Positions 12,500-43,027 of a stretch of 43,062 bases of DNA are shown piece after piece. How positions within the stretch are numbered: position 1 is the stretch's first letter; each line of letters starts with the position of its first letter. This stretch comes from an uncultured Candidatus Saccharibacteria bacterium (lineage in GTDB: Bacteria; Patescibacteriota; Minisyncoccia; JAHIHE01; JAGLIN01): the NCBI GenBank assembly GCA_964412905.1, contig CAYPQL010000003.1, forward strand, positions 1-43,062. The letters are read 5' to 3'. Both the position numbers and the translations under genes were made by a program. The notes below the pieces were generated by a model that saw nothing but the letters and a program-made list of their open reading frames with translations, made no database searches and had not been told where the DNA came from.

Positions 12500-12518
12500 A
12501 ATGAAATATTAAAAACAT

Positions 12519-12554
12519 AAAACACTATGGTAATATGAATTATCATAGTGTTTT
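12519..12554. terminator. Palindromic terminator AAAACACTATGGTAAT-ATGA-ATTATCATAGTGTTTT
   Basis: 12-bp stem (one G-T pair) flanked by A4 and T4. Member of the CTATGATAAT palindrome family. Confidence 0.65.
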
Positions 12555-12566
12555 ATTGCTTGCTCG

Positions 12567-12690
12567 TTGACTTTTTTACTCAATATGCTATTCTACCGAT
12601 AGAAAATGAATCACAATCTATTAACCTAACCTCCGGGCTTTTTGTTTGGAGTATGGTTGAAATTCTAGAGTATAGAAGCGGTCTTCTGAT
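12567..12690 (+). promoter_or_regulatory. Repeated promoter-plus-leader module, copy 2 (upstream of the KilA-N gene)
   Basis: TTGACT (12567-12572), N16, TGcTATTCT (12589-12594). The leader is near-identical to copy 1, including the mini-ORF, which carries a synonymous TTA-to-CTA change. Confidence 0.6.
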
Positions 12691-12708
12691 AAAATTCAAA
12701 ATAAAAAT

Positions 12709-13539
12709 ATGGCGAATCAAAAAATTATTGTTCAAAATACTGAAATTGTTTTGTTTTCGGAGGGAAAGGATGATTTTATATCTTTAACTGATATTGCTAA
12801 ATATAAAAATTCGGAGTTTCCGGCGGACGTGATAAAAAATTGGATGAGAAATCGCGGGACTATAGAATATCTGGGATTGTGGGAGAGGATTAATAATCCG
12901 AATTTTAAACTGGTCGAATTCGACGAGTTTAGAAATGAGGCAGGGAGCAATTCGTTTGTGCTTTCTCCTAAAAAATGGATTAACCATGTTAATGCCGCGG
13001 GGTTGATAAATAAAGCGGGGAGATATGGCGGCGGGACTTTCGCGCATAAGGACATTGCTTTTGAATTTGCTTCATGGATTTCAGCGGAGTTCAAGCTGTA
13101 TCTTATAAAAGAATTTCAGAGGCTTAAAAGCGATGAAAATGTTCGCTTAAAGCTGGATTGGAGCGCGAAAAGATTTTTAGCCAAGGCAAACTATCGCGTG
13201 CATACGGACGCCGTGAAGGAGAAATTAATTCCGGCGCAAATTTCAAAAAAGCAAATCAAGATGATTTACGCGGACGAAGCCGATGTCCTGAATGTGGCGC
13301 TTTTTAGCCAAACCGCGAAAGAATGGAGGGACAAGAATTCCGGCAAAAAAGGCAATATGCGGGATTACGCGGATATTATCCAGCTGGTATGCCTTGCCGG
13401 GCTGGAAAGTCTTAATGCGGAGTTTATCAGGCAGGGAATTGATCAAGGCGAAAGATTAAAAAAGCTAAATAAGATTGCGATTATTCAGATGAGGGCGCTA
13501 ACTATGGATAAAAACGGAAGGAAGATTTTGACTAAATAA
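12709..13539 (+). CDS. KilA-N domain-containing protein
   Basis: 276 aa. Matches the KilA-N pattern: ISLTDIAKYK, NWMRNRGTIEYLGLWE..NNPNFK, GRYGGGTFAHKDIAFEFASWISAEFKLYLIKEFQRLK. Confidence 0.8.
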   Translation: MANQKIIVQNTEIVLFSEGKDDFISLTDIAKYKNSEFPADVIKNWMRNRGTIEYLGLWERINNPNFKLVEFDEFRNEAGSNSFVLSPKKWINHVNAAGLINKAGRYGGGTFAHKDIAFEFASWISAEFKLYLIKEFQRLKSDENVRLKLDWSAKRFLAKANYRVHTDAVKEKLIPAQISKKQIKMIYADEADVLNVALFSQTAKEWRDKNSGKKGNMRDYADIIQLVCLAGLESLNAEFIRQGIDQGERLKKLNKIAIIQMRALTMDKNGRKILTK

Positions 13540-13564
13540 AAATAAGATTTAAAGATAAAAATAT

Positions 13565-13603
13565 AAAACACTATGGTAATATGAATTATCATAGTGTTTT
13601 TTT
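13565..13603. terminator. Palindromic terminator (same sequence as 12519)
   Basis: AAAACACTATGGTAATATGAATTATCATAGTG followed by T7. Confidence 0.65.
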
Positions 13604-13613
13604 GTTTTTTGGT

Positions 13614-13716
13614 TTGACTTTTTTATTTGGCGTGCTATTCTACCAACAGAAAATGAATCACAATTTAGAAACCTAACCTTCGGGCTTTTTTGTTTGGAGT
13701 ATGGTTGAAATCCTAG
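13614..13716 (+). promoter_or_regulatory. Repeated promoter-plus-leader module, copy 3 (no ORF of its own downstream)
   Basis: TTGACT (13614-13619), N16, TGcTATTCT (13636-13641), then the conserved leader (mini-ORF MNHNLET). It is followed immediately by a separate promoter. Confidence 0.55.
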
Positions 13717-13731
13717 AACACATTTATTTAT

Positions 13732-13759
13732 TTGACACAATTTTTTTAACTGCTACAAT
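13732..13759 (+). promoter_or_regulatory. Promoter TTGACA-N16-TGcTACAAT for the riboswitch transcript
   Basis: TTGACA at 13732-13737, TG at 13751-13752, TACAAT at 13754-13759. Confidence 0.6.
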
Positions 13760-13778
13760 GCGATCAGACAATTAAATA

Positions 13779-13946
13779 AGTTTATCCAGAGTACGGCGAG
13801 GGAACTAGCCCCAAGACCCGTCAGCAACCCTTGAATGGTGATTCCATCAAGAAGGTGCTAATTCTAGCCCTAAAAAGGAAAGATACAGGTCGTTTTTTGT
13901 TTTTCTGGAACAAAAATATCTTTCTCTTCTCGGGAAAGATTTTTTA
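13779..13946 (+). promoter_or_regulatory. SAM-I (S-box) riboswitch with terminator expression platform
   Basis: The aptamer core matches the S-box consensus blocks: TTATCCAGAG, GGCGAGGGAACTAGCCC, AGACCCGTCAGCAACC, GGTGCTAATTCTAGC, GGAAAGATAC. The terminator is ATCTTTC (13918-13924) / GAAAGAT (13934-13940) plus a T-run. The same ATCTTTC can instead pair with GAAAGAT (13878-13884) of the aptamer 3' strand, acting as an antiterminator. Confidence 0.85.
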
Positions 13947-13967
13947 ATTTTCTAAATATAAAACACA

Positions 13968-14699
13968 ATGGAAAATAAATTTAAAGAGCTATGCGATTTT
14001 TATCTTTTAGACGGTAAGTTATTATATGTTTCTCGAGAGTTTATAGGTTTTGATCCTGTTATCAGTAAGGGGTTGTCTTGTGAACGCAATAAAAAAAGTA
14101 ACACTACAATTAAGCTTGATGAATTTAAATTGGGCGATTCTTCGTTTAATGCCATCCTGACAAACCATATTAGCTGGGGACCGTTAAGCGGGTATCGGCG
14201 GGCAGAGATATTAAGAAATGGCAGGACTATCATCAACTATGAACATGGCGGTATGGGACACGGGTCGAACTATTGTAAGGGAAATTATTTTCATTTGGAA
14301 AATGGAAATGCTTTTCTGCTAAAAAACGGATATGCGCTCAGAGATGTATCTACTGACAAAATTTATTCAAACCTTAATCATGACAATGATTATTTATTTT
14401 GGTTCAAGGATGTAGTCATTCCCATTGCGGGCAAATTGTGGCCAGTTGATGGCAGTGCGTTAGATTATGACAAAATTTACCATCGCGCCGAAATCGAACC
14501 GCTAAGGCAAATTCAATGGGATGCGCATGTAAATTTTAATAGCCAGCATATTTATATCAAAAAAACGGCGGTTCCATATTGTTGGCAAACTTTATGGGAA
14601 TCCGCTAATAAATATGAGGAATTCAAAAGAATGGATCAAGAGGGTTTTAGGGCGCTGGGCAGGATAGAGTTTAACGATATTGGTTTTGAGAGATACTAG
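13968..14699 (+). CDS. Hypothetical protein (riboswitch-controlled), family not recognised
   Basis: 243-aa ORF 20 nt after the riboswitch terminator. Soluble and Trp/His/Gly-rich (HGGMGHGSNYCKGNYFH). No motif I can name. Confidence 0.6.
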   Translation: MENKFKELCDFYLLDGKLLYVSREFIGFDPVISKGLSCERNKKSNTTIKLDEFKLGDSSFNAILTNHISWGPLSGYRRAEILRNGRTIINYEHGGMGHGSNYCKGNYFHLENGNAFLLKNGYALRDVSTDKIYSNLNHDNDYLFWFKDVVIPIAGKLWPVDGSALDYDKIYHRAEIEPLRQIQWDAHVNFNSQHIYIKKTAVPYCWQTLWESANKYEEFKRMDQEGFRALGRIEFNDIGFERY

Positions 14700-14794
14700 T
14701 TAATTTTTTGGTGAAAAATTTGTGAATGAAACCTGTTAAAATGGCGGGACTTGTGATATAATTAAATTAATTAATTAATGGTTAAACTAAAAAT

Positions 14795-15130
14795 ATGATT
14801 ATAGATGAACTTAAGAATGTGAAATTTAACAAATCTCCAGCAATAATATCCGCAGTCTTATTACTGCTAGCACTTTTGTCGTGGCCTTATGGTTTTTATA
14901 CTTTTCTCAGGATAGCAGTTACGGGCGCGGCGATTTATTACAGTTATTTTCTTTATCAGCAAAACTTAACAGAAAAGATGAGTTTCTGGTTTTGGGGATT
15001 GATTGTCGTCATTATTCTCTTCAATCCTATTTTTCCGATTTATTTAAACAGAGGAGTTTGGGAGATTCTGGATATTTTAACGGCGGTGTTTTTTGCGGGG
15101 ATGGTTTGGAAGGTTGAGGATAAGGGTTAA
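14795..15130 (+). CDS. Small integral membrane protein
   Basis: 111 aa with 3-4 hydrophobic helices. Preceded by GGGACTTGTGATATAAT (14746-14762). Confidence 0.6.
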   Translation: MIIDELKNVKFNKSPAIISAVLLLLALLSWPYGFYTFLRIAVTGAAIYYSYFLYQQNLTEKMSFWFWGLIVVIILFNPIFPIYLNRGVWEILDILTAVFFAGMVWKVEDKG

Positions 15131-15232
15131 AAATATGATTGAATATGTGGTTATTGGATTGCCTGACTGATTATGGGGACTTGTGGTATAATGGAAATGG
15201 ATAATGATTAACTATATAATTGAATAAAAATT

Positions 15233-15889
15233 ATGGGTCTATTTAATTTTTCAAAATACAACGATGCAGAAAAAGCATTTCTTGACCAATACTCTCAAGC
15301 GATGAGTATGACTGGTATGTCTTTAGCGGAAGCTAAAAAAGTGACTGAGAATATGCTTGACCAAGCAATTGAGGAATCAAAAAAAGAGGGAACATATTAT
15401 TTGCCCAAAAATTTAGGAGATATTGTTTTGGGAGATGTTGAAAGTGATAATCCAATAATAAAGGAATTCGCCGAAATTATAAGACAAAAACTGCCCAAGA
15501 AGAAAGCGGAAGGAGCAAATGACGAAGATATTAGATGGTGGTGGAATTTAAATGATTTAGAAAGACGTATGATGTTGAAGCAGGACAATTTTACGAAAAT
15601 GACCTTTTTTACGGCCGAACTTGAAACGAGTGATGAATTTTCTGAAAAAGAGGTAGCAGTTAGAGCGGCTGCAGAAGTAAGAAAATGCCACCCAATATAT
15701 GGCGACCCCGATGACACAGCACACGCGACTAACGATGATAGGCCGCTTCCTTATGAGTTAAAAGACAGAATAAATACTTATATTCTAAAAAGAATAAGAG
15801 AAAATCCGGAAAAATATAAAAACGAAATGGATCAATCGTCTACTTTTAATGCTTTAATTCGCAAAGAAATAAAGGCGGGCAATTTATAG
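15233..15889 (+). CDS. Hypothetical protein
   Basis: 218-aa ORF preceded by GGGGACTTGTGGTATAAT (15175-15192). No recognised motif. Confidence 0.55.
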   Translation: MGLFNFSKYNDAEKAFLDQYSQAMSMTGMSLAEAKKVTENMLDQAIEESKKEGTYYLPKNLGDIVLGDVESDNPIIKEFAEIIRQKLPKKKAEGANDEDIRWWWNLNDLERRMMLKQDNFTKMTFFTAELETSDEFSEKEVAVRAAAEVRKCHPIYGDPDDTAHATNDDRPLPYELKDRINTYILKRIRENPEKYKNEMDQSSTFNALIRKEIKAGNL

Positions 15890-15996
15890 ATATGCAAAAT
15901 AATTATGGAACCGTATATGCAAACTTTGGCGGAAATCATGAAAATACTATAGAGTTTTAATTATTTAGTTATATAAACAAACATCATAAAACAACA

Positions 15997-16833
15997 ATGG
16001 CGGAATACAAAAAACTAAATACTAATGATTTTAAGGAATTTGAAGATAAAAATAAGAAATACAAAGAAGGAATATTTGAGCTTCAGCTTAATTCTTGGGA
16101 TGAGTTTTGCGATGTTGAAAAAAAATTCAATGATTATCCGGACTATATCTGGAGGGGACAAAAAGAAGATTGGCAACTTAAATCTTCGTTTGATAGAAAT
16201 TCTTTTACAAAAAAATTTTCATATCTTTTTGGCAGACAAAAAGTAGTTGATAAATTGCTTGAAAAATTTAAAAAGAAACTTCTTGATTTGCCAAGAGCTA
16301 CTATTTCTAATGATGATGACGGAATATGGGCAATAGGACAACATTATGGCTTGCCAACACCTTTGCTTGACTGGACGACAAATCCTTATATTGCAGCTTA
16401 TTTTGCTTTTTATGAAAGAAAGACAAATGAAAAATATAGAATTGTTTATGCTCTTAGTAAATCAGTAAAACAACTTAAAGCAATAAAGAAAGATTTAAAA
16501 AAACAAAAACTATCAAGTGAACCTTTTCTTGAGTTTCTTGATTTGATAGAGACTCCTGATAAAATACAAAATATAAGGTTAGAAAAACAGGAAGGAAGAT
16601 TTACTAAATCTTTAAACGGAATAGATATTGAAAGCAATGTAAAAAAATATGCGAAGAAGCGTCCTGCTATTGTTTCAAATAAAGAAATATTGCTTATGAA
16701 AACTTTTATACCTGACATACTACGAGAGGAATTTTTAAAGTATCAAAAATTCAAAGATATCACTTATGGTAAACTGTTTCCCGATTACGCAGGTGCGGTT
16801 GATATTTGCAAAATCGATTTAGGTATAGTATAG
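15997..16833 (+). CDS. FRG domain-containing protein
   Basis: 278 aa. YIWRGQKEDWQLKSSFDR and GQHYGLPTPLLDWTTNPYIAAYFAF match the FRG-domain signature. Confidence 0.7.
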   Translation: MAEYKKLNTNDFKEFEDKNKKYKEGIFELQLNSWDEFCDVEKKFNDYPDYIWRGQKEDWQLKSSFDRNSFTKKFSYLFGRQKVVDKLLEKFKKKLLDLPRATISNDDDGIWAIGQHYGLPTPLLDWTTNPYIAAYFAFYERKTNEKYRIVYALSKSVKQLKAIKKDLKKQKLSSEPFLEFLDLIETPDKIQNIRLEKQEGRFTKSLNGIDIESNVKKYAKKRPAIVSNKEILLMKTFIPDILREEFLKYQKFKDITYGKLFPDYAGAVDICKIDLGIV

Positions 16834-16865
16834 AAATAATTAAAAAAAATAACTAAATCAAACCT

Positions 16866-17510
16866 ATGAAAAAACTTATTATATTATTAGCAATCATATC
16901 ATTTTTTATTTTTCCGCCAGTTGTTATAATTTATATTCTTTTGGCTGTAGTATTATATTTTCTGGACACACAGGAAAGTATTACAAACAGACCACTATAT
17001 TTACATAAAAAAAGTCTATTGACTAAAATATTTTATGTTTTACTGTTGCCGTTAAAAATAATTTCAAGGATAAAATATTATAAGCATAAAACAAACAAAC
17101 ACACCGTAGTAAGCGTGCCAAAAGAAGAAACAGAAAAAAGAAAGACGGTTGAAAAAGCTTTAGAAGAACTACTAAATGGTATTAAGATTAGTAAGCCAAT
17201 AGATATAGACGAACAGGTAGATCGAATGATAAATTGGGTTAAAAAAGAAAAGGTATCTTTATCTAATACGGAGTTGGATAATTTTATTGACAAGATTTTT
17301 AAAAAAAACTTAGAAAGAGAGAATATGATTAAAAATAGCTGGCAAAAATTTATTTTGCAAGCAGATTCTAAAAAATCCATAGAAGATCAATTATTTGAAT
17401 GGATAAAAAGGGAAAATCTTAATTTGTCGGATAAGGAAATGGAAAAATTGATTGATATTGAAGAATTGAGAATTGGCATGAATAGAAATAAAATTTTTAA
17501 AGATCGTTGA
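16866..17510 (+). CDS. Hypothetical membrane-anchored protein
   Basis: 214 aa with two N-terminal TM helices. The C-terminal region has an internal duplication (W.K.E...LS..E...ID). Confidence 0.55.
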   Translation: MKKLIILLAIISFFIFPPVVIIYILLAVVLYFLDTQESITNRPLYLHKKSLLTKIFYVLLLPLKIISRIKYYKHKTNKHTVVSVPKEETEKRKTVEKALEELLNGIKISKPIDIDEQVDRMINWVKKEKVSLSNTELDNFIDKIFKKNLERENMIKNSWQKFILQADSKKSIEDQLFEWIKRENLNLSDKEMEKLIDIEELRIGMNRNKIFKDR

Positions 17511-17542
17511 TATAATAATTAATCTCTAAAATAAATAAATTT

Positions 17543-17743
17543 ATGAATTCAGAAAAATCTAAAATTAATTGTCCTTTTTGTAAAAAACCAACAAGCCCTT
17601 ATGGCATTATTTATAAGTTGCCAATGTTGGATGTTTTAACGGGTGAGGCGAGCAATAAAGACAAAGATGAAATTATTTTAATACTTTGTGACAACATTGA
17701 CTGCAAAGCTTTTCTTGGAGCATATAAGCAAATCAAAAAATAA
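17543..17743 (+). CDS. Small zinc-ribbon-like protein
   Basis: 66 aa with CPFC ... CDNIDC cysteine pairs. Confidence 0.45.
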   Translation: MNSEKSKINCPFCKKPTSPYGIIYKLPMLDVLTGEASNKDKDEIILILCDNIDCKAFLGAYKQIKK

Positions 17744-17755
17744 TTAAAAATTTCT

Positions 17756-18697
17756 ATGTTCAAACTTTTTAAATCAGACAAAGATAAAAAACTAGAAGCA
17801 ATCAGAAAACAAATACTTTTATGGCATCATGCATGTATGCTTGGCGTTGACGAAAATTTGTTAAAAGAGCCCAGACCACAAATTGGCGCTATTCTGTTTT
17901 TTCTTGGTTCTGTAGATTCTTTATGTCAAGCATATGCAATTAATGATGATAAAGTATTTGCTGATCTTGGAATAGAATTGCTAGAAATTATGGGATTTAA
18001 AAAAGAAATTATAATACTGATTTCTATGAATTTTTACACGCGACGACCAGATAATGAATTTGCATTACAAGCAAATGTCGAAGGTGGTAGAAAAATAACT
18101 GAATTTCTTTTTAAAGAAAATACAATAGCACCTCTTGCTTTTGGTGCTTTTGTGAGTGAATGGGCCCAAAAACCAGATTTATGCCCAGATGATATGCCTT
18201 TACTCTCTACTTTGCCTTGTAATAAAAAACAATGCAAAGAAGAATTTGGGATAGATATTACCGATCAGGCTCTTGAAGACCATAATTTTAAAATCAATTC
18301 ATGCGGCTGGAAAAAAATTACAGTTGACGGAAAATCTTATTTTGAAAATCCAGAAAAAGATATTTGGGAAATTCTTGAGGGCGAATGTGCGGGCGAACAA
18401 TTATTTTCTTGGGACGCTGCAATAAGAGAAACAAAAAAAGCTGGAAAGCGAATTCCGACTAAAAAGGAATTCACTGAAATTTTAAAAACAAAAGAAGATA
18501 TGTCTAATGTTATTTTTACTGGTTTTTGCTTTGGAGATGGATCATTTTGCAGGCATACTCCGAATATGTCTTTTTGGTCTTCTACAGAAAGCGATGATTC
18601 TGCATGGAAACAAAACTTATACTCTAGCGATTCTGTTATTACACAGGATATATGCTATAAGGCAGCTGGCTTTTCCGTGCGTTGCATTAAGGATTGA
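17756..18697 (+). CDS. Hypothetical protein with C-terminal FISUMP (Fibrobacter succinogenes major paralogous, TIGR02145-like) domain
   Basis: 313 aa. The C-terminal part has AGKRIPTKKEFTEIL ... FWSSTE ... GFSVRCIKD, typical of that domain. Confidence 0.6.
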   Translation: MFKLFKSDKDKKLEAIRKQILLWHHACMLGVDENLLKEPRPQIGAILFFLGSVDSLCQAYAINDDKVFADLGIELLEIMGFKKEIIILISMNFYTRRPDNEFALQANVEGGRKITEFLFKENTIAPLAFGAFVSEWAQKPDLCPDDMPLLSTLPCNKKQCKEEFGIDITDQALEDHNFKINSCGWKKITVDGKSYFENPEKDIWEILEGECAGEQLFSWDAAIRETKKAGKRIPTKKEFTEILKTKEDMSNVIFTGFCFGDGSFCRHTPNMSFWSSTESDDSAWKQNLYSSDSVITQDICYKAAGFSVRCIKD

Positions 18698-18738
18698 TTT
18701 TGTAAAATTTTTGTAATTAAAAACTAAATTTAAAAAAG

Positions 18739-19053
18739 ATGATTTCTTTTAAAATAGAAAATAATTTGCTTATACTTATTTATGACTCATTTGATAGTAA
18801 TAATAAGTGGGTTTATCAGGAACTAGACAAAAAAGGAAAGTATACTTTTAAAAAGATTTTTACTTTTTTAAAAAGTGATTTGTATAAAGTTAATTCAAAT
18901 GAACTTGAAAATGATTTTGATAAACCTGTAGAATTTATTTTTGCAAAATTAGTAGAAGATTATTTTAAGGTTGAAAAAAGAGTGCTATCAATAGATCAAA
19001 GCTTGTTTATTTACAAAAGCATAATATTATCATCAAAGTTTTTTGTTGCTTAA
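18739..19053 (+). CDS. N-terminal fragment of a Shedu-type protein (frame-shifted relative to 19221..19931)
   Basis: 104-aa ORF. The downstream DUF4263 reading frame is already open from 18975 and overlaps this ORF by 79 nt. Confidence 0.5.
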   Translation: MISFKIENNLLILIYDSFDSNNKWVYQELDKKGKYTFKKIFTFLKSDLYKVNSNELENDFDKPVEFIFAKLVEDYFKVEKRVLSIDQSLFIYKSIILSSKFFVA

Positions 19054-19220
19054 AAAATATTTCAATTTTTAGAAAAATAAACAAACTGGTTAGAGAGGAT
19101 ATTTATATAGGTGGCAACAAGGAGAATGCTTTACCAGAAAATGAGTTTAATCAACTTATAAAAAGTTTTCCAAACAGTTATGAAATAGAAAAATATATTG
19201 GTGCGCGTCTTAGCACGGTT

Positions 19221-19931
19221 TTGGAAAACTATTTTAATAAAGTGATTGATGGCAAAGAAAAATACAACCGTTACATGAATAAAAAAATTAGTCGAAAAGG
19301 AGATAATTTGACAGACATGTTTTTAGATAGTGAACTAATAAAATATGAAATTATTTTACGAAAACTTGAGGAGATGTTGAAAAATGAAAATAAATATATC
19401 GAAAAGCAATGGCAAAAAGAAATACTCCAGATAATTTTACTTTTATATCCGAAATATATACATGTTTTCCCTGAAGCACCTGTAAGAGACACTTATAATA
19501 ATAAAAATAGAAGTATAGATTATTTGTTGGTCGATTCAGTTGGAAATACTGATATCATTGAGGTAAAGAGACCTTTTGGCAATGACATTGTATCAAAAAA
19601 ACAATTTAGAGATAATTATATTCCTATAAAAGAGTTAATTGGTACAGTCATGCAAGTTGAAAAATATATTTTTTACCTAAATAAATGTGGAAAGAAAGGG
19701 GAAAATAAATTAACAGAAAAATATAAAGAAATACTTCCAAGCGGATTAAAAATAAAGATTACTAATCCTAATGGCATTATTATTATGGGACGAGACAATA
19801 AGCTTAGTTCAATTCAAAAACAGGATTTTGAAATAGTAAAAAGAAAATATAAAAACATAATTGATATTATGACTTATGATGATTTACTAAGAAGATTACA
19901 ATTTATAATAGCAAAGTTTAAGCTTGAATAA
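19221..19931 (+). CDS. DUF4263 / Shedu-type PD-(D/E)xK nuclease domain protein
   Basis: IDYLLVDSVGNTDIIEVKRPF (D..EVK nuclease motif), GIIIMGR and a C-terminal IMTYDDLL are typical of DUF4263. The only in-frame start is a TTG, and the frame is open 246 nt further upstream. Confidence 0.65.
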   Translation: MENYFNKVIDGKEKYNRYMNKKISRKGDNLTDMFLDSELIKYEIILRKLEEMLKNENKYIEKQWQKEILQIILLLYPKYIHVFPEAPVRDTYNNKNRSIDYLLVDSVGNTDIIEVKRPFGNDIVSKKQFRDNYIPIKELIGTVMQVEKYIFYLNKCGKKGENKLTEKYKEILPSGLKIKITNPNGIIIMGRDNKLSSIQKQDFEIVKRKYKNIIDIMTYDDLLRRLQFIIAKFKLE

Positions 19932-19951
19932 ACAGTAAAAAACTATTAAAA

Positions 19952-20554
19952 GTGAAAATTAAAATAATAAACCTTAATAATAAACTTATGAGTATTTCAA
20001 AATTCTGCTCAAATTGCGGTAAACCTATTTTTGCAGAGGATAAATTCTGTGGAAGTTGCGGGGCTAAAATAAATTATTCGTTTAGCGGAGAAAATGCGGA
20101 AAGTGTTGGAAATAATCCGCCAAGAACAGAAAAGGAACAATTTACAAAAACTAATTCTGCCAATGCGCAATATTATTCTGTTTCGCCGGAAAAGTTTGCC
20201 ATTCTGTCAATTATTACATTTAACTTATATCTGCTTTACTGGTTCTATAAAAACTGGCTTGTGGCAAAGGAGCAAGAAAAGTTGAATGTATCGCCATTTT
20301 GGAGAGCTTTTTTTGCGCCCCTTTTCGCTGATAGTTTGTTTAAAATAATCTTAACTTCCTCCCAAAAACAAGGGTATAAAGGAAATTACTCATCTTTGTT
20401 TTTAGCCATAATTTTTTTGGTTTTTTATATTTTTGCGTGGAATTTTACTGATCCGTGGTGGCTTGTGGCTTTTTTGGCGTTCGTTCCCTTACTGCCCGCG
20501 CAAAAAGCAATTAACTTTATCAATTCAAAAAATAATTCAGATTTTAATTGTTGA
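19952..20554 (+). CDS. Zinc-ribbon plus DUF4234-like membrane protein
   Basis: 200 aa. N-terminal CSNCGKPIFAEDKFCGSCG, then TM helices with ITFNLYLLYWFYKNW. Confidence 0.55.
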   Translation: MKIKIINLNNKLMSISKFCSNCGKPIFAEDKFCGSCGAKINYSFSGENAESVGNNPPRTEKEQFTKTNSANAQYYSVSPEKFAILSIITFNLYLLYWFYKNWLVAKEQEKLNVSPFWRAFFAPLFADSLFKIILTSSQKQGYKGNYSSLFLAIIFLVFYIFAWNFTDPWWLVAFLAFVPLLPAQKAINFINSKNNSDFNC

Positions 20555-37493: not shown

Positions 37494-37576
37494 AGTTTTG
37501 TTTTAATGCTTATTTAATTTCATTATATATTTATAAAGAGTAAAAAGCAAATTAAAATACCCCCCTGAATTCACAT

Positions 37577-37890
37577 CCCCCTCGACAAACTTTTTCTTTG
37601 TGATAGACTGTTTTGTTGTATTGAGATACAATAAAAACAGGAGGAGGAGGGAGATGGGCTTTATGCCCATTATGATAAAGGTTTGTTCTTTTAAATATTT
37701 CTTTCAAGGCGGGTTTTTTGAGGAGCATGAAATCAGTTGAAAGTTATAAAGTTTGTAAAGTTGAAAGCGTTTCCTTTTTGACTTTACGGACTTTATAAAC
37801 TGTCGCATGGTCAATAAAAAAACCGCCTATGAGAGAAAAATATAATACAAAAGGAGGTGGTTGAATAGATTAGAGAAGAAAATTTAAGGA
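37577..37890 (+). repeat. ~320-nt module, copy 1 (promoter, hairpin, strong SD, 28-codon ORF, long hairpin)
   Basis: Near-identical to 39594-39918. TCGACA (37582-37587), N16, TGaTAGACT (37601-37609). TTGTAT-TGAG-ATACAA hairpin. AGGAGGAGGAGGGAG. Confidence 0.85.
37654..37740 (+). CDS. Candidate small peptide MGFMPIMIKVCSFKYFFQGGFFEEHEIS (possible rSAM substrate or regulatory leader peptide)
   Basis: The ATG lies directly after the AGGAGGAGGAGGGAG run. The ORF is preserved in the second module copy with an invariant central 13 residues. Confidence 0.5.
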   Translation: MGFMPIMIKVCSFKYFFQGGFFEEHEIS

Positions 37891-37902: not shown

Positions 37903-38652
37903 ATGACAGGAAATAATGTGAGAAATTATAGAAAAAATTGGTTTTCCGTACAGCTAAAGCCCGCAGGAAATACCTGCAATTTAAGATGCAATTATTGCTA
38001 CGCAAAATCTCATTTAGCAAGCGGAAAATTAATGTCTGAAGAAATATTAGAAGCTACGATAAGAAAAATCATTGAACAAGATTACGCATACCCGACATTT
38101 AGTTGGCACGGTGGAGAACCTACTCTTATAGGTTATGAATTATTCGAATATGCCATGCAGCTAATGAACAAATATAAGCGGCATGGGCAGACTGTATATA
38201 ATTTAATACAAACCAACGCTACAAAGATTAATCCGGAATTAGCAAAGCTTTTCAAGAGAAATAATTTCGGAATCAGTATTAGTCTTGATGGTCCTGAAAA
38301 CATGCATGGATTAAACAGAAAATTCATAAATGGCAAGAATTCATTTGTGGAAGTCCTGAAAGGAGTAAAAATTCTGAGAGAATACGAAATTGAACCCTCG
38401 GTTATTTGCACCGTGTCGAAAGGCAATCTGCCGCACGCTACGGAAACTTTTGATTTTCTGATATCGCAAGGTTTTAAAAAAATAAAATACAGTCCGGTTT
38501 TTGATTCTGTAAAGGATAATTTTAGCGTAACCAGCGAAGAATGGTTTGAATATTTAAAAAAATATTTTATCGCTGGTTTGAAATCGGTAATCCGGAAATT
38601 CAAGTTAGAGATTTGGATGAGGTTATTGTTTGGCTGTCAAATACTTCTCTAA
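37903..38652 (+). CDS. Radical SAM protein, anaerobic-sulfatase-maturase-like core; SPASM part frame-shifted and truncated
   Basis: CNLRCNYC (CxxxCxxC), GGEPTL, QTNATK and SISLDGP..H motifs. After the A7 run (38556-38562) the homologous sequence continues in another frame (FYRWFEIGNPEIQVRDLDEVIVWLSNTSLNLCSSNKTCLNWISVNPKSNL) and stops at 38715-38717. Confidence 0.7.
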   Translation: MTGNNVRNYRKNWFSVQLKPAGNTCNLRCNYCYAKSHLASGKLMSEEILEATIRKIIEQDYAYPTFSWHGGEPTLIGYELFEYAMQLMNKYKRHGQTVYNLIQTNATKINPELAKLFKRNNFGISISLDGPENMHGLNRKFINGKNSFVEVLKGVKILREYEIEPSVICTVSKGNLPHATETFDFLISQGFKKIKYSPVFDSVKDNFSVTSEEWFEYLKKYFIAGLKSVIRKFKLEIWMRLLFGCQILL

Positions 38653-38713
38653 ACCTATGTTCTAGCAACAAAACTTGCTTAAACTGGATTTCAGTTAATC
38701 CAAAATCAAATTT

Positions 38714-39592
38714 ATGAAATTCGAATTGGAAAAAATTAATACCGCCGATGGCTTAATTTTAAATGGAATATTTTTTAATCCAAAAAAACAAAGACGGAAA
38801 GCCGCTTTGTTTATTCATGGATTTCCGGGCAATTTTTATTCAAATTCCGAGATTATCAACAATCTTGCGGAAGAATTTAACAAGTCTGGCTTTGGTTTTT
38901 TGTCTCTTAATACCCGCGGTCACGACATTATTAATGTTTCTTTTAAAAAAAACGGAAGCGCCTTAATATCAGGATCGGCTTTTGAAAATTTTGATGATTG
39001 CCTTTTTGACATAGAGGCTGGAATAAAATTTTTAAACTCACAGGGATTTAATGAAATCTTTTTAATCGGAATCAGCGGTGGAGCCGATAAAACCGGTTTT
39101 TATCTTTCAAAAAAACCCAACAAATCAATTAAAGGATCGGTTTTTCTTTCGCCCGGAAGCAATATTTCAATAATCAGGAAAGAATTAAGAAGTAAATTTA
39201 ACCCGCTTTTAAAAAAAGCTTTTGAAATGGTTAAAAAAAATAGAGGAAACGAATTAATTTTAATGCCCGAATTGGAATTTCCAGTTTCGTGGCAAAGATT
39301 TATTAGCTTATACAGCGAAGAAAGCAATGAAAATGTGTTTCCAATCCATAATAATAAATCTGAATTTGAATCTTTATCTAAAATTAAAGCGCCCATACTA
39401 ACAATTATAGGAGATAAAGATAAATTTTTTGACAATCTTGATTTGGAAAAAATCGCGGAACTTTTAAAACAAAAGATAAAAAATTCGCCCGATTTTAAAT
39501 TCAAGGTAATTAAAAACGCAAATCATCGGTTTAAAGGAAAAGAAAAAGAGCTGTCAGTTTTGATTAAAAATTGGGTAAAGGATGTCGCGTAA
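38714..39592 (+). CDS. Alpha/beta-fold hydrolase
   Basis: 292 aa. HGFPGN oxyanion region, nucleophile elbow GISGG, candidate Asp (IGDKD) and His (NANHRF). Confidence 0.7.
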   Translation: MKFELEKINTADGLILNGIFFNPKKQRRKAALFIHGFPGNFYSNSEIINNLAEEFNKSGFGFLSLNTRGHDIINVSFKKNGSALISGSAFENFDDCLFDIEAGIKFLNSQGFNEIFLIGISGGADKTGFYLSKKPNKSIKGSVFLSPGSNISIIRKELRSKFNPLLKKAFEMVKKNRGNELILMPELEFPVSWQRFISLYSEESNENVFPIHNNKSEFESLSKIKAPILTIIGDKDKFFDNLDLEKIAELLKQKIKNSPDFKFKVIKNANHRFKGKEKELSVLIKNWVKDVA

Positions 39593-39593
39593 A

Positions 39594-39918
39594 CACCCCC
39601 CCCGACAAACTTTTTCTTTGTGCTAGACTGTTTTGTTGTATTGAGATACAATAAAAACAGGAGGAGGAGGGAGATGGGCTTTATGCTCATTATAATAAAG
39701 GCTTGTTCTTTTAAATATTTCTTTCAAGGTGGGTTTTTTGAGGATCATAAAAACAGTTGAAAGTTAGAAAGTTTGTAAAGTTGAAAGCGTTTCTTTTTTG
39801 ACTTTAATGGACTTTATAAACTTTCGACTTTATGAACTGTCGCATGGTCAACAAAAAAACCGCCTATGAGAGAAAAATATAATGTAACGGAGGTGACTGA
39901 ATAGATTAGAGAAAGAAA
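39594..39918 (+). repeat. ~320-nt module, copy 2
   Basis: CCGACA (39602-39607), N16, TGcTAGACT (39621-39629). Same hairpin, SD and ORF. One extra word unit sits in the downstream hairpin. Preceded by a C9 run. Confidence 0.85.
39674..39760 (+). CDS. Candidate small peptide MGFMLIIIKACSFKYFFQGGFFEDHKNS
   Basis: Same position and frame as 37654-37740. Seven nucleotide differences: six change terminal residues and one is a synonymous GGC-to-GGT change in the core. Confidence 0.5.
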   Translation: MGFMLIIIKACSFKYFFQGGFFEDHKNS

Positions 39919-40027
39919 TATAAGGTTTGATATTTAAATTTTTGTGAAAAAGTTAAAATAATATCAGTTGAAAAATTAAGTTGGGTTGGACTATTATTAG
40001 AAAAAATTGATAAACTATATTAAAAAT

Positions 40028-41443
40028 ATGAGTTATAATAATATAAAAAAGGTTGGATGGGGATTTGGCAGATGCAACCAAAAATGTAAACATTGTTATA
40101 ATAATTCAAAAGCGACCGGAGACATATATACTTTCAGCCAGTTAAAAAATGTGGCAGATAAAATATGTCCATTTATAGAAGATATAAACTTTGGAACAGG
40201 AGAATTTATTTTTAATCCAAACACGCTGGATTTAGCTGAATACATCAAAGACAAATATCCTAAAATAAAAATGTCTGTTACTTCCAACGGATCAACTATT
40301 GTGATGATGCGCCCTAAAAAAATTAAAAAGATATTTAACGATGTTGATGTTTCACTGGATTTTCCAGATAAAATAAGACATTGTGAATTCAGAGGGCATC
40401 CTAGGGCATGGGATTTGGCGATGGATTCGTTAAAAATACTTAAAGAAGAGAATATAAATCATACGATAGTGTCTTGTATCACTTCCCAAACTACCGATGA
40501 AGATATTTCAAGTTTATTAAAAATAAGTAAAGAATACAACGCAAGTTTTAGAATGAACTGGTTTAGATGCGCCGGGAGAGGAACTAACGAATTAAGAATT
40601 TCAGCAAAAAGAGCGTGGGGAATTATAGAATTTCTTTCCGAAAAAGTCATTTTTAGTTGCATAGACTCTATTTTCGCCGGAGTATTGGGGATAAAAGCTA
40701 GTAGTTGTCCCGCCGGAAGAGAGAGCTGCAGAATACATGAAGATATGCAAGTGTCATGCTATCCTTTTCTTAAGGGAGATATGTGGTCAGCCGGAAACAT
40801 TATGAGAAAAGAAATAGATCTTGATACGGTTTATAATTCCAAAATATTCAAAAGAATAAGAAACAGAAAAATATCTTTTTGCAGAGACTGCGATTTCAAA
40901 AATATATGCAAAGGAGGTTGTGTTACCATGGCATATTTGCATAATGGAAAAATAGACGAGGTTGACGACTATTGTCCCGTGAAAGCAAATCTCGACATAG
41001 AAAAATTGAAGAAGATAAAGATTAAATTTAATCCCAACAAAGATTTTGTTCACAACGGTTATCTATGTACTACCATTTGCACTGCAAATGTATGCGATTC
41101 CTCTAAAGAATATTTGAATAAAAATGTCAAAGTTATTATGGACAGGCCATTAAATAGTTTACATCCAAAATACGGATTTAAATATGAATTGAATTACGGA
41201 TATATACCGGACACCATAAGCGGAGACGAAGAAGAATTAGACGCTTATGTTCTCGGAGTTGACAAGCCGATAAAAGAATTTGAGGGAAAATGCGTGGCAA
41301 TAATTCATAGGCTTAATGATGACGATGACAAATTAATAGTAATACCCAAAGACATGAAAAATATAACTGACGAAAAGATACTTGCTAAAACTAATTTTCA
41401 GGAAAAATATTTTAAAATTGAAATAATCAGACCTGAAGATTAA
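40028..41443 (+). CDS. Radical SAM/SPASM-domain protein fused to a C-terminal family-I inorganic-pyrophosphatase-like domain
   Basis: CNQKCKHC cluster motif and a Cys-rich SPASM-like region (CPAGRESC...C..C.....CKGGC......DDYCP). From about 41123 it reads IMDRPLNSLHPKYGF.YELNYGYIPDTISGDEEELDAYVLGVDKP...F.GKCVAIIHRLNDDDDKLIV, resembling the short PPase family. The ORF track starts at TTG 40007. Confidence 0.7.
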   Translation: MSYNNIKKVGWGFGRCNQKCKHCYNNSKATGDIYTFSQLKNVADKICPFIEDINFGTGEFIFNPNTLDLAEYIKDKYPKIKMSVTSNGSTIVMMRPKKIKKIFNDVDVSLDFPDKIRHCEFRGHPRAWDLAMDSLKILKEENINHTIVSCITSQTTDEDISSLLKISKEYNASFRMNWFRCAGRGTNELRISAKRAWGIIEFLSEKVIFSCIDSIFAGVLGIKASSCPAGRESCRIHEDMQVSCYPFLKGDMWSAGNIMRKEIDLDTVYNSKIFKRIRNRKISFCRDCDFKNICKGGCVTMAYLHNGKIDEVDDYCPVKANLDIEKLKKIKIKFNPNKDFVHNGYLCTTICTANVCDSSKEYLNKNVKVIMDRPLNSLHPKYGFKYELNYGYIPDTISGDEEELDAYVLGVDKPIKEFEGKCVAIIHRLNDDDDKLIVIPKDMKNITDEKILAKTNFQEKYFKIEIIRPED

Positions 41444-41476
41444 AGTTCTTTGTAAAATTAAAGGAGTTGATAACAA

Positions 41477-42091
41477 ATGACCAAAGGATATTTTGCGGTA
41501 TTTGAGTCGGTATGCAAATGCGGCAAGACAACGATAGCGACTAAATTGACGGAAGCTTTAAAAACGCTCAATATGCCTGTTCTTCACAAGAGAGGGGCAT
41601 TGAGCGCTTCAAAGTTTTCTAAAAAATATAATGCTTTGAATATTAAAAGTTTAGAATATTCAAGCGCATTTTACTGGGCTGATGCTATCTTCAATACTCA
41701 AAATACTATATCGGCAATGCTAAGAAAAGAAATAGTCATTCAGGAAAGATATGATTTATCAATAGTTTCCTATCGAGAGGCCAATGGTCTGATTGGAGAT
41801 TTTCTTCTACTGGAAGAATATCTTGAAAGAGGACTGCTGATTAATCCCGATTTAACTGTTTTTTTGAAAGCAAAACCTGATGTAGTATTTGAAAGAATAA
41901 TATATGGCGAAGACACTTCTGCCGCAGACTTGGAGTTCTTGGATAATTCAGAAAAATTATTATCTATGCAAAATATTATTTTAAGCTATATAAAAAAGCT
42001 TGAAAGAAATTACATCTCCATAGAGACGGACAAAGTTAGTGTTGATGGCGCCGTTCGGATCATTATTGAAGAAATACTAAAGACACAATAG
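41477..42091 (+). CDS. Divergent dTMP-kinase-like P-loop kinase
   Basis: 204 aa. FAVFESVCKCGKTT occupies the position of the Tmk FI.FEG.DG.GKST loop, and ERYDLSIVSY that of DRY..S..AY. SD AAGGAG lies upstream. Confidence 0.5.
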   Translation: MTKGYFAVFESVCKCGKTTIATKLTEALKTLNMPVLHKRGALSASKFSKKYNALNIKSLEYSSAFYWADAIFNTQNTISAMLRKEIVIQERYDLSIVSYREANGLIGDFLLLEEYLERGLLINPDLTVFLKAKPDVVFERIIYGEDTSAADLEFLDNSEKLLSMQNIILSYIKKLERNYISIETDKVSVDGAVRIIIEEILKTQ

Positions 42092-42099
42092 GAGGATTT

Positions 42100-42978
42100 A
42101 TGCAAGACATCTATATAAACTATGATGATATAGAAAAGTTTAAAAAGAAAGCGGAAGTGAAAGTAGCGATTGTAGCCAGACCTGATTGGTTTATGAAAAA
42201 AGCGAAGCTTCAGCATTTAATAGTTGAGACTAAACTAGGCACTCATGATAGATTCTATCTTACGGAATATGATGGAAAAAAATTCGTAATAGTTTATGGA
42301 AGATTTGATAGGATTAGATCTATGTCATCTGATATAGACTACGAATTAACGCAAGAGGCAATATCTGCTATCGGGATAGAAACAATTATTGGAACATTTG
42401 TCGCGGGTTCCATAAAAGACGATGACTTTGCGGGGAGCGTGTATATTCCACATGATTTTGTAGGAATGGGTAATTATTCCCAGACTCGCAACAGAAATGG
42501 GTTTAAAAATGTGGATATGTTCACTCCGTTCTGTGAGGAAACCAGGCAGAAGTTGATCTTAGCTACCAAAAAAGTACCTTTTCCTGTGAACAATAAAGGA
42601 ATCTATGTATGTTTTCACGGCTATCCTAGGATAGAAACAAAAGCAGAATTGGATTTCTACGGAAGAATGGGATGGCACATGGTGGGGCAAACACTTGATC
42701 CTGAAGCAACTCTTGCGAAAGAAGCCGGCTGCCATTATTCAGCTATTGTCGCAACAATCGACGATAGAAAATTAAGGCAAAAATTTATGAATAATGATGG
42801 TGAAGCGAAAAGAGAAATAGAAAGCAATATCGCAGGAGGGAGAAAAAAGACTTTCGAAATATTCACGGAGTCTTTAGAAGAGCTGATAAAAGACAATTAT
42901 AACTGTAATTGCCTTGAGCAACAGAAGCATGTATTAGGAAAGAACAAACATTTCTATTATATGCCAATGCTTGATTGA
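42100..42978 (+). CDS. Divergent MTAP / purine nucleoside phosphorylase family protein
   Basis: 292 aa. GTFVAGS, TPFCEE.R, YVCFHGYPRIETKAEL, MVGQTLDPEATLAKEAGCHYSAIVATIDD parallels the MTAP pattern (GP.FET.AE, GMT..PE..LA.E.G..Y). The N-terminal phosphate loop is atypical (VAIVARPDW). Confidence 0.6.
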   Translation: MQDIYINYDDIEKFKKKAEVKVAIVARPDWFMKKAKLQHLIVETKLGTHDRFYLTEYDGKKFVIVYGRFDRIRSMSSDIDYELTQEAISAIGIETIIGTFVAGSIKDDDFAGSVYIPHDFVGMGNYSQTRNRNGFKNVDMFTPFCEETRQKLILATKKVPFPVNNKGIYVCFHGYPRIETKAELDFYGRMGWHMVGQTLDPEATLAKEAGCHYSAIVATIDDRKLRQKFMNNDGEAKREIESNIAGGRKKTFEIFTESLEELIKDNYNCNCLEQQKHVLGKNKHFYYMPMLD

Positions 42979-42994
42979 AATAATGAATCGGTTT

Positions 42995-43027
42995 TTAGAG
43001 GAAAACTTTTCCTCTAATTTTTTTATC
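42995..43027 (+). terminator. Intrinsic terminator ending the rSAM-kinase-phosphorylase block
   Basis: TTAGAGGAAAA / TTTTCCTCTAA followed by T7. Confidence 0.7.

Follow-up and report, generated by a model that had tools for sequence, protein, structure and literature searches.

The 43,062-nucleotide (nt) stretch of DNA analyzed here, referred to as the window (contig CAYPQL010000003.1 of an uncultured Candidatus Saccharibacteria bacterium), ends in a three-gene operon. Its first gene fuses a radical S-adenosylmethionine (rSAM) enzyme carrying a SPASM domain to a miniature inorganic pyrophosphatase (mini-PPase), its second encodes a kinase resembling dTMP kinase (Tmk-like), and its third a protein resembling methylthioadenosine phosphorylase (MTAP-like). 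The operon is a reduced, four-module version of a larger conserved gene cluster, like the one in the related genomic locus L001. Its features are as follows.

39968-39997, + strand: promoter-like site TTGAAA-18-TATTAT, 10/12 consensus matches, 30 nt 5' of the fusion ATG
40028-41443, + strand: fusion gene, ATG start, 471 amino acids (aa), an uninterrupted open reading frame (ORF) identical to database protein P0001
40028-41092, + strand: rSAM/SPASM module of the fusion, aa 1-355, delimited by alignments and homologue lengths
41093-41443, + strand: mini-PPase domain of the fusion, aa 356-471, delimited by PF00719, fold and active-site alignment
41477-42091, + strand: Tmk-like gene, 204 aa, P-loop nucleoside monophosphate (NMP) kinase fold
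42100-42978, + strand: MTAP-like gene, 292 aa, PNP_UDP_1 fold
42995-43027, + strand: intrinsic terminator, 10-bp stem, 3-nt loop and T7 tail

The genes are tightly packed. Gaps of 33 nt between the fusion and Tmk-like genes and of 8 nt between the Tmk-like and MTAP-like genes were read from the sequence, the same values as in an earlier sequence-only reading of this DNA, and the clean terminator described there is the hairpin at 42995-43017 followed by TTTTTTT, which closes the operon 3' of the MTAP-like gene. A ribosome-binding site (AAAGGAG) lies 10 nt 5' of the Tmk-like gene. The promoter-like site is weak evidence, since such sites are no commoner around these positions than in shuffled sequence. 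An alternative start codon for the fusion gene is the TTG at 40007; the ATG at 40028 is the likely start, given the match to P0001 and the N-termini of homologues. Residues of the fusion are counted here from this ATG, except that its Pfam and NCBIfam domain positions are counted from the TTG and become ATG numbering after subtracting 7.

The single ORF proposed in the sequence-only reading, joining an rSAM core, a SPASM-like region and a pyrophosphatase-like domain, is upheld by three profiles that score above threshold: PF04055 Radical_SAM (56.7 bits, gathering threshold (GA) 29.5, aa 21-171), SPASM TIGR04085 (35.4 bits, cut-off 27, aa 234-323) and PF00719 Pyrophosphatase (32.4 bits, GA 23.5, aa 390-453, profile positions 31-98 of 153). 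The Tmk-like protein matches PF02223 Thymidylate_kin (41.1 bits, GA 27) and has the P-loop ESVCKCGKT that the reading pointed out, and the MTAP-like protein matches PF01048 PNP_UDP_1 (59.1 bits, GA 25.1), with VAIVARPD in place of the GGSG phosphate loop, the atypical loop that the reading had remarked upon. Because these scores exceed curated thresholds, and because there are full-length homologies at 62-68% identity to another genome, L001, the matches are not due to chance.

The rSAM module belongs to the radical SAM superfamily by both motif and threshold, and to its SPASM subgroup (TIGR04085 / PF13186). The cysteines of the CX3CX2C motif (C16, C20 and C23; CNQKCKHC in the window) are invariant in an alignment of 71 family members. 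The SPASM region of the window protein contains eight cysteines, of which C285, C288, C294 and C316 are invariant across the 71 members and C227, C234, C298 and C347 are variable. R122, R175, R235, H342, Y345 and a strand motif, D107-x-S109-x-D111, are likewise invariant, and we infer that R122, R175, R235, H342 and the strand motif fit an anionic, perhaps metal-bound substrate. The C-terminal motif, VHNGYLCTTI in the window and VH(D/N)GYLCTTI family-wide, marks the natural end of the module: almost all homologues of aa 1-355 are stand-alone proteins of 350-360 aa that end a few residues past it. None of the curated NCBIfam models claims the family; MftC comes nearest, with 94.6 bits where 265 are required. 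In the AlphaFold2 (AF2) model of the whole fusion the predicted local distance difference test score (pLDDT) exceeds 90 over aa 1-340 and is low in the pyrophosphatase (PPase) part, which is probably an alignment problem, so that this model is not informative on domain packing. The closest folds to the rSAM module found by Foldseek are SuiB, anSME, BlsE, viperin and MoaA, and PDB profile and fold searches recover anSME, SuiB, CteB, SkfB, BlsE, viperin and MoaA at similar, low levels; a single-sequence PDB search with the fusion matched no rSAM structure.

The C-terminal 116 residues are 60-86% identical to stand-alone proteins of 110-120 aa annotated as 'inorganic diphosphatase', a family of more than 2200 clusters at 90% identity, many of them from Paceibacterota, Moraniibacteriota and Gracilibacteria. 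Modeled on its own with 40 homologues, the mini-PPase reaches a mean pLDDT of 92, and the best 50 of its 88 PDB matches (E <= 0.001) are every one a family I PPase, with TM scores of 0.6-0.7 normalized to the query. An alignment of 30 mini-PPases to E. coli PPase allows a comparison in the numbering of the latter. Equivalents exist at 10 of the 14 E. coli active-site positions: E20 (as D), K29, Y51, Y55, D65, D67 (as E), D70, D97 (as N, the residue mostly found across mini-PPases), D102 and K104. The other four positions fall where the mini-PPases have deletions, E31 and R43 in a hairpin and Y141 and K142 in the C-terminal helices. By profile, by fold and by these active-site positions the domain is therefore related to family I PPases, as the sequence-only reading had it, with the same β-barrel, the same acidic metal-binding motifs and the K29/K104 pair; it differs from the soluble family I enzymes in its length of about 110 residues and in lacking the E31/R43 hairpin, the Y141/K142 helices and hence the full set of 14 active-site residues. 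Judged from the alignment, the metal-binding core is kept and several of the residues that hold the phosphates of pyrophosphate (PPi) are gone. A further difference is mobility, for this predicted PPase is a module found fused to NUDIX domains, P-loop kinases or rSAM enzymes. Elsewhere it stands beside NUDIX and CYTH genes, or is fused to NUDIX (in 282-aa proteins), to two NUDIX domains or to a zeta/AAA_33-type P-loop kinase. Its behavior is that of a mobile accessory to enzymes from which pyrophosphate is released or which carry it. It may hydrolyze either free PPi or a diphosphate carried by a substrate.

How unusual is the fusion of such a domain to an rSAM enzyme? The junction in the window is in frame and connects a complete rSAM C-terminus to a complete mini-PPase, which begins at about its residue 2, through a linker of about 3-10 aa (CDSSKEYLNKN). 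A word-indexed search found no second protein with both domains. When 1.84 billion representatives were searched exhaustively with phmmer, a single one emerged, P0367, which is 31% identical to the window fusion over 461 residues and has SPASM and PF00719 domains. It lies on a 225-kb contig of 54% G+C with Tmk-like and nucleotidyltransferase-family genes nearby; its rSAM N-terminus is in a different frame on the contig, and a frameshift is therefore present. The rSAM-PPase architecture is thus rare but recurrent and arose at least twice, so that the domain combination, for which the sequence-only reading knew of no described system, is not unique. In P0367-type lineages (L032, L038 and L043) the PPase gene lies directly 3' of the rSAM gene, whereas in the closest relatives of the window (L001) it lies 3' of the MTAP-like gene. 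A second kind of fusion is found in Candidatus Endomicrobiellum (L022, 4568-6184), where a 538-aa protein has an N-terminal NUDIX domain followed by an rSAM/SPASM enzyme of the same family, 38% identical to the window rSAM. NUDIX is a separate gene directly 5' of the rSAM gene in L021 and L023, and in L024 the same position holds a 194-aa ORF that clusters with those of L021 and L023 and scores below the NUDIX threshold. These independent fusions, twice to PPase and once to NUDIX, speak for a direct coupling between the radical chemistry and the cleavage of a diphosphate. Such coupling would be expected only where a di- or triphosphate is part of the rSAM substrate or product, or where PPi is set free beside the rSAM enzyme. 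The fusions constitute a strong Rosetta-stone hint at which steps are coupled.

Other fusions occur in the wider rSAM family, among representative-library matches (P0386, P0408 and P0500): a 684-aa protein joins an NAD-dependent NDP-sugar epimerase/dehydratase (SDR) to an rSAM enzyme, and proteins of 571 and 593 aa join an rSAM enzyme to a class I SAM methyltransferase. The L022 cluster also has an FkbM methyltransferase, a PTP-type phosphatase and three more rSAM genes.

The Tmk-like protein scores 47.4 bits on TIGR00041, below the dTMP-kinase equivalog cut-off of 83.25, and is 51% identical to its L001 orthologue. The dTMP-kinase motifs (P-loop GK[ST], DR[YFH] and a LID arginine) are present, with E for D in DRY; the residues whose retention the sequence-only reading had left to be checked, the P-loop Lys, the (D/E)RY Arg and one LID-region Arg, are all kept in the alignment, within CGKTT and QERY in the case of the first two motifs. 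The F-x-x-x-R helix that binds thymine and dTMP is absent, its place being taken by STAFYWAD, in which the equivalent of the arginine is Ala or Asp. STAFYWAD, the P-loop FESxxKCGKT, HKRGALS and QERYDLS are conserved in the MTAP-associated Tmk-like subgroup.

A comparable pattern of retention and replacement is seen in the MTAP-like protein. It scores 95.2 bits on TIGR01694, well short of the MTAP equivalog cut-off of 274.85, and also scores on methylthioinosine phosphorylase models. Residues are compared in the numbering of human MTAP. The catalytic aspartate (human D220) is retained, D221 and D222 being conserved in at least 90% of a subfamily that comprises more than 140 clusters. Members of the subfamily also share with MTAP the fold, the motifs GQT and PRIET and, at the C-terminus, the CxC of the archaeal enzymes. 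Of the five MTAP side chains that bind phosphate, four are substituted (P28 for T18, I/V65 for R60, Y66 for H61 and F100 for T93), only the equivalent of T197 (T198) being kept, and the subfamily has invariants of its own in R27 and D29 (in VAIIARPD) and R68 (in YGRFDR). A check of the catalytic residues of the phosphorylase therefore comes out divided, with the aspartate in place and the phosphate ligands largely gone. The MTAP-like protein is probably still a purine N-ribosyl-cleaving enzyme, but its second substrate site is rebuilt and it perhaps no longer uses phosphate as MTAP does. The Tmk-like and MTAP-like proteins, both below the equivalog cut-offs and with remodeled substrate and phosphate sites, are conserved, specialized subfamilies and not housekeeping or decayed Tmk and MTAP.

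We surveyed the genomic neighborhoods from both sides. On the rSAM side, taking one genome per species gave 36 loci, which were annotated with purpose-built hidden Markov models (HMMs). The Tmk-like gene adjoins the rSAM gene in 11/16 informative closest loci (42-62% identity to the window), and at the others of these loci the partners are a second SPASM rSAM, a B12-binding rSAM (B12-rSAM), NUDIX, the mini-PPase and an Hsp70-like (YegD-type) ATPase. On the MTAP side, members looked up individually lay within the cluster in four cases out of four, and a metagenome scan yielded 59 loci, of which 20 had at least 5 kb on both sides and were used to count partners within 6 kb. All 20 have an rSAM gene of the window family, usually abutting the MTAP-like gene; 16 have the mini-PPase, 12 a B12-binding rSAM, seven the Tmk-like kinase, five NUDIX, three an amidohydrolase and three the Hsp70-like ATPase. 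The failure of the kinase and phosphorylase genes to co-occur with this rSAM family in other genomes, which the sequence-only reading named as the outcome that would make the adjacency fortuitous, is not what these loci show. The modules of the cluster as defined here lie together in unrelated genomes; they are conserved and co-inherited, and their adjacency is not fortuitous.

The arrangement varies between lineages. In L001 and L046 the order is rSAM-Tmk-MTAP-PPase, as separate genes, and all four modules also occur as separate genes in L040, L041 and L043, the last with the order Tmk-B12rSAM-MTAP-rSAM-PPase-Hsp70. A gut-type cluster (L066 and L081-L084) reads LysR-rSAM-MTAP-(150 aa)-(324 aa)-B12rSAM-PPase, and L088 is the same without the 150-aa ORF; the label gut-type rests on low-GC contigs (25-27% G+C in the three measured) and on the related L063 and L091, which are labeled human-gut assemblies. 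Weak nucleoside-deoxyribosyltransferase-like and HprK-like ORFs are found in the gut-type cluster. Named hosts are mostly Patescibacteria, with Woesearchaeota, Micrarchaeia, Clostridia, Endomicrobiellum and others also represented. The amidohydrolase partner is of the adenosine-deaminase type and scores on 5'-deoxyadenosine deaminase and MTA/SAH (methylthioadenosine/S-adenosylhomocysteine) deaminase models. In two archaeal loci, L020 (4472-7700, Micrarchaeia) and L029 (4567-7450, Nitrososphaeria), NrdD lies directly 5' of the rSAM gene, whose product has about 40% identity and which sits where the NrdD activase gene usually lies. In L020 a 230-aa ORF 3' of the rSAM gene has a weak phosphoribosyltransferase (PRTase)-like loop, a hint only, its sole match being at E = 0.5. 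LysR or TrmB regulators in cluster variants suggest that the operon is controlled by a metabolite. In the branch that has the rSAM gene, a second rSAM gene and in some cases the Tmk-like gene (L009, L012, L013, L016, L027 and others), the gene adjoining the rSAM gene on the opposite strand repeatedly encodes a protein of about 720 aa that combines a metallo-β-lactamase fold with two cyclic-nucleotide-binding domains.

What might this cluster do? The sequence-only reading offered two answers, accessory functions for a peptide maturase or the making or remodeling of a nucleoside or nucleotide, and it is the second that comparative genomics supports. The predicted functions of the partners have nucleoside and nucleotide chemistry in common. 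Among the partners are proteins with the folds of NMP kinases and of purine nucleoside phosphorylases, PPase, NUDIX, a deaminase, NrdD, the weak nucleoside-deoxyribosyltransferase-like and HprK-like ORFs and the NDP-sugar epimerase/dehydratase fused to a family member. We favor this answer because the recurrent partners are all nucleotide enzymes and because the rSAM enzyme has been independently fused to PPase or NUDIX. We put the probability at about 0.55 that the cluster encodes a conserved and so far undescribed pathway for a small molecule, either a nucleotide or a different ribosyl compound with a diphosphate. In such a pathway the rSAM/SPASM enzyme would generate a 5'-deoxyadenosyl radical from SAM and use it to take a hydrogen from a small molecule with a phosphate group, at the sugar or at the base, with its auxiliary Fe-S cluster or clusters handling the electron. 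Directly before or after the radical step, the fused mini-PPase would remove pyrophosphate or the terminal diphosphate of the substrate and thereby pull the reaction or release the product. The Tmk-like kinase would turn a phosphomonoester into a diphosphate, its substrate being a non-thymine NMP analogue or else a sugar-1-phosphate. The MTAP-like enzyme would cleave the N-glycosidic bond of a purine nucleoside, probably 5'-modified, so as to feed or drain the pathway, and may cleave 5'-deoxyadenosine as well.

A more specific version, which is doubtful as it stands, is a radical-SAM route for making or salvaging a modified (deoxy)ribonucleotide or nucleotide-linked sugar in organisms of minimal metabolism, that is, bacteria of the candidate phyla radiation (CPR), DPANN archaea and low-GC gut bacteria. 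If true, the route could stand in, through radical and partly B12-dependent chemistry, for one of the canonical steps of nucleotide metabolism, or alternatively be the source of a new nucleotide-derived cofactor or antimetabolite, and a diphosphatase mechanistically coupled to a radical enzyme would explain the rSAM-PPase and NUDIX-rSAM fusions. Enzymes of the rSAM superfamily that act on free nucleotides (viperin, MoaA, QueE and OxsB) have opened fields, from antiviral chain terminators to cofactor biosynthesis and antibiotics. The present cluster is large and phylogenetically broad and is named by no curated family model (NCBIfam 2026), and its parts are coherent: a specialized kinase, a specialized purine-nucleoside-cleaving enzyme, a miniature PPase and one to three rSAM enzymes. 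Gaps in nucleotide metabolism are known from CPR bacteria and DPANN archaea. The cluster is common in these two groups and present in gut bacteria as well, so that its product could account in part for the way in which such organisms obtain or alter nucleotides. The compact three-gene version in the window is a convenient minimal system for biochemistry.

Several points weigh against a pathway of this kind. The nearest structural relatives of the rSAM module are mostly peptide- or protein-modifying SPASM enzymes (SuiB, anSME, CteB and SkfB), and the fold does not favor a nucleotide, nor does it discriminate between a peptide and a nucleotide substrate. Met301 of the window rSAM (GGCVTMAYL, nt 40928-40930) stands where 99% of the 71 family members have Arg (GGCxxR), the closest homologue of the window rSAM among them. 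The window operon is without the B12-rSAM and Hsp70-like genes found in many relatives, and none occurs within the 43 kb of the window. The window's own fusion is known from one assembled contig only. With a family of more than 2200 clusters, the mini-PPase may simply be the general PPase of its hosts. Finally, the recycling of adenine from 5'-deoxyadenosine would also account for the MTAP-like enzyme, the amidohydrolase, the PPase and the kinase.

The last point belongs to the alternative that survives best, which we nonetheless regard as unlikely: the rSAM substrate would be a peptide, protein, lipid or cofactor, and the accessory genes would recycle the 5'-deoxyadenosine by-product. Adenine or hypoxanthine would be released by the MTAP-like enzyme, with a DadD-type deaminase ahead of it in some loci, a phosphoribosyltransferase would convert the base into NMP and PPi, the mini-PPase would remove the PPi, and the Tmk-like kinase would return the NMP to the nucleoside diphosphate (NDP) pool. 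MTAP-type enzymes together with 5'-deoxyadenosine deaminase are a known archaeal route for disposing of this by-product, and the profile scores of the amidohydrolase partner and of the MTAP-like protein, on MTAP and methylthioinosine phosphorylase models in the latter case, are in keeping with it. Clusters with two or three rSAM genes would generate much by-product, CPR organisms depend on salvage, and weak PRTase-like ORFs (E 0.5 only) lie 3' of the rSAM gene in L020 and L011. The proposal that the MTAP-like enzyme clears 5'-deoxyadenosine, part of the peptide-maturase option in the sequence-only reading, is accordingly still a live rival. However, replacement of four of the five phosphate ligands and the acquisition of R27, D29 and R68 are unexpected for a plain 5'-deoxyadenosine phosphorylase, the kinase is without the thymine-site residues and nothing marks it as an adenylate kinase, and the fusion of PPase or NUDIX to the rSAM enzyme itself is hard to explain for a hydrolase acting three steps away.

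The peptide substrate envisaged in that option fares less well, since neither a conserved precursor nor a peptide-recognition domain was found and the partners do not resemble those of ribosomally synthesized and post-translationally modified peptides (RiPPs). No homologous small ORF 5' of the rSAM gene is shared by the window, L001, L039 and L040, and a RiPP precursor was rejected for these loci. Pfam and NCBIfam detect no N-terminal peptide-recognition (RRE/PqqD-like) domain in the window protein, in which the Fe-S motif starts at residue 16. Enzymes of the anSME type also do without such a domain, so that its absence is weakly informative.

In a different setting, the operon could be part of a conflict system in which phage attack leads to a modified nucleotide that serves as a chain terminator or toxin, on the pattern of prokaryotic viperins and their kinases, with the kinase raising the phosphorylation level and the PPase or NUDIX protecting the host or maturing the product. 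We consider this improbable. PADLOC models give weak matches, of the rSAM core to pVip (45 bits), of the Tmk-like kinase to PDC-M51B (37.6 bits) and VakA (24 bits), and of the B12-rSAM of the cluster to PDC-M51A (30 bits), all of them low scores. The surroundings of several loci are variable and contain genes for Fic/RhuM, transposase, recombinase or reverse transcriptase, and a pseudogene and a duplicated 330-nt element precede the window cluster, whereas the gut-type clusters have GreA and trigger factor as neighbors, come with a LysR regulator and have the look of a metabolic operon. Viperin itself has no SPASM domain, and the window protein scores 34.6 bits on the NCBIfam viperin model against a cut-off of 180. 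Among 2.9 million viral contigs there was no relative of the MTAP-like protein, and relatives of the rSAM module were at most 30% identical; these scans indicate that the cluster is not phage-borne and have no bearing on defense. That the fusion or the adjacency is fortuitous, or an artefact of assembly or frameshift, is very improbable indeed: the window fusion does come from a single contig and its closest relatives have the PPase gene 3' of the MTAP-like gene rather than of the rSAM gene, but two complete domains meet in frame, a second fusion (P0367) exists in a distant lineage, rSAM followed by PPase is the gene order in three other loci, and the co-occurrence statistics exclude chance adjacency.

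The cluster is not a member of the viperin, adenosyl-adduct, 5'-deoxyadenosine salvage or OxsB/OxsA systems, which are the nearest to it in logic. In prokaryotic viperins with VakA (pVip + VakA), as in eukaryotic viperin with CMPK2, an rSAM gene is paired with an NMP-kinase-fold gene and the viperin substrate is a nucleoside triphosphate, and viperin is among the weak matches of the present rSAM core by profile and by fold. The match to the viperin model (NF038283) is confined to the rSAM core, and unlike the window protein with its SPASM domain, viperin has neither that domain nor a PPase or MTAP partner. The adenosyl-adduct pathways may offer an analogy. MqnE, acting with aminofutalosine deaminase, MTAN/MqnB and MqnC, tightly couples an rSAM enzyme to an enzyme of the PNP/MTAN fold by which a 5'-substituted adenosine loses its purine, and HpnH, HpnG and HpnJ combine an rSAM enzyme, a PNP/MTAN-fold enzyme and a second rSAM enzyme, which is B12-binding in this hopanoid case. 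Enzymes of these four families (rSAM, PNP/MTAN fold, amidohydrolase-type deaminase and second rSAM) appear in cluster variants; MqnE, MqnC and HpnH are of other rSAM subfamilies, however, and those pathways have no kinase or PPase.

The salvage of 5'-deoxyadenosine and MTA (MTAP/MTIP, DadD and the dihydroxyacetone phosphate (DHAP) shunt) shares with the cluster the MTAP fold, D221, the CxC motif and, in some loci, a deaminase partner. It differs in the MTAP score (95 against 275 bits), in the replaced phosphate ligands and in the shunt isomerase and aldolase, which the cluster is without. OxsB/OxsA of oxetanocin biosynthesis consists of a B12-dependent rSAM enzyme and a phosphohydrolase that act on deoxyadenosine phosphates, and the larger cluster is similar in logic, bringing a B12-binding rSAM together with a phosphohydrolase and nucleotide enzymes. 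The OxsA phosphohydrolase, however, belongs to the HD-domain proteins, the two systems are unrelated in sequence, and a B12-rSAM is absent from the window. PDC-M51, a PADLOC candidate whose component A is B12-rSAM-like and component B Tmk-like, is matched weakly over the full length of the Tmk-like protein (B) and weakly by the B12-rSAM (A), at 30-38 bits only, and is a two-gene candidate system that is itself unvalidated. Full-text literature searches found no paper that describes the cluster, the mini-PPase or PDC-M51.

The region 5' of the operon shows signs of rearrangement of its own. A direct repeat of about 330 nt with 94% identity is present in two copies only, at 37573-37889 and 39593-39925, each 5' of an rSAM gene. 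The first of these, at 37903-38700, encodes the N-terminal two thirds of an rSAM enzyme of the anSME/peptide-maturase type (TIGR03942, 175 bits); it has a frameshift at an A-run near 38560, is cut off by the next gene and is a pseudogene remnant unrelated to the fusion rSAM (30 bits on the fusion-rSAM family HMM). An alpha/beta-hydrolase gene (DUF1749 / Abhydrolase_1) at 38714-39592 lies between the pseudogene and the second repeat copy, which starts exactly at the hydrolase stop codon and thus suggests an insertion or recombination event. The repeat holds a 28-aa ORF after a strong AGGAGGAGG site (MGFMPIMIKVCSFKYFFQGGFFEEHEIS / MGFMLIIIKACSFKYFFQGGFFEDHKNS). This ORF was considered as a precursor peptide and rejected, since its two copies differ by 6 non-synonymous and 1 synonymous changes, and are thus not conserved as protein, and it is absent from 44 related loci. 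A structured RNA was also rejected, as Rfam gives only a chance let-7 match; the repeat, too, is absent from the 44 loci. It may be a duplicated promoter or leader region left behind by rearrangement.

Farther from the operon, a SAM riboswitch (S-box, 58.6 bits) at 13779-13889 lies 5' of a 243-aa ORF without a Pfam family (13968-14699). A low-GC stretch at 11534-20554 (25-30% G+C at 16-20 kb) carries AntA and KilA-N antirepressor-like genes, an FRG-domain gene and, at 19221-19931, a gene with the Shedu SduA_C domain. This stretch, 20 kb from the operon, is probably a mobile or defense islet.

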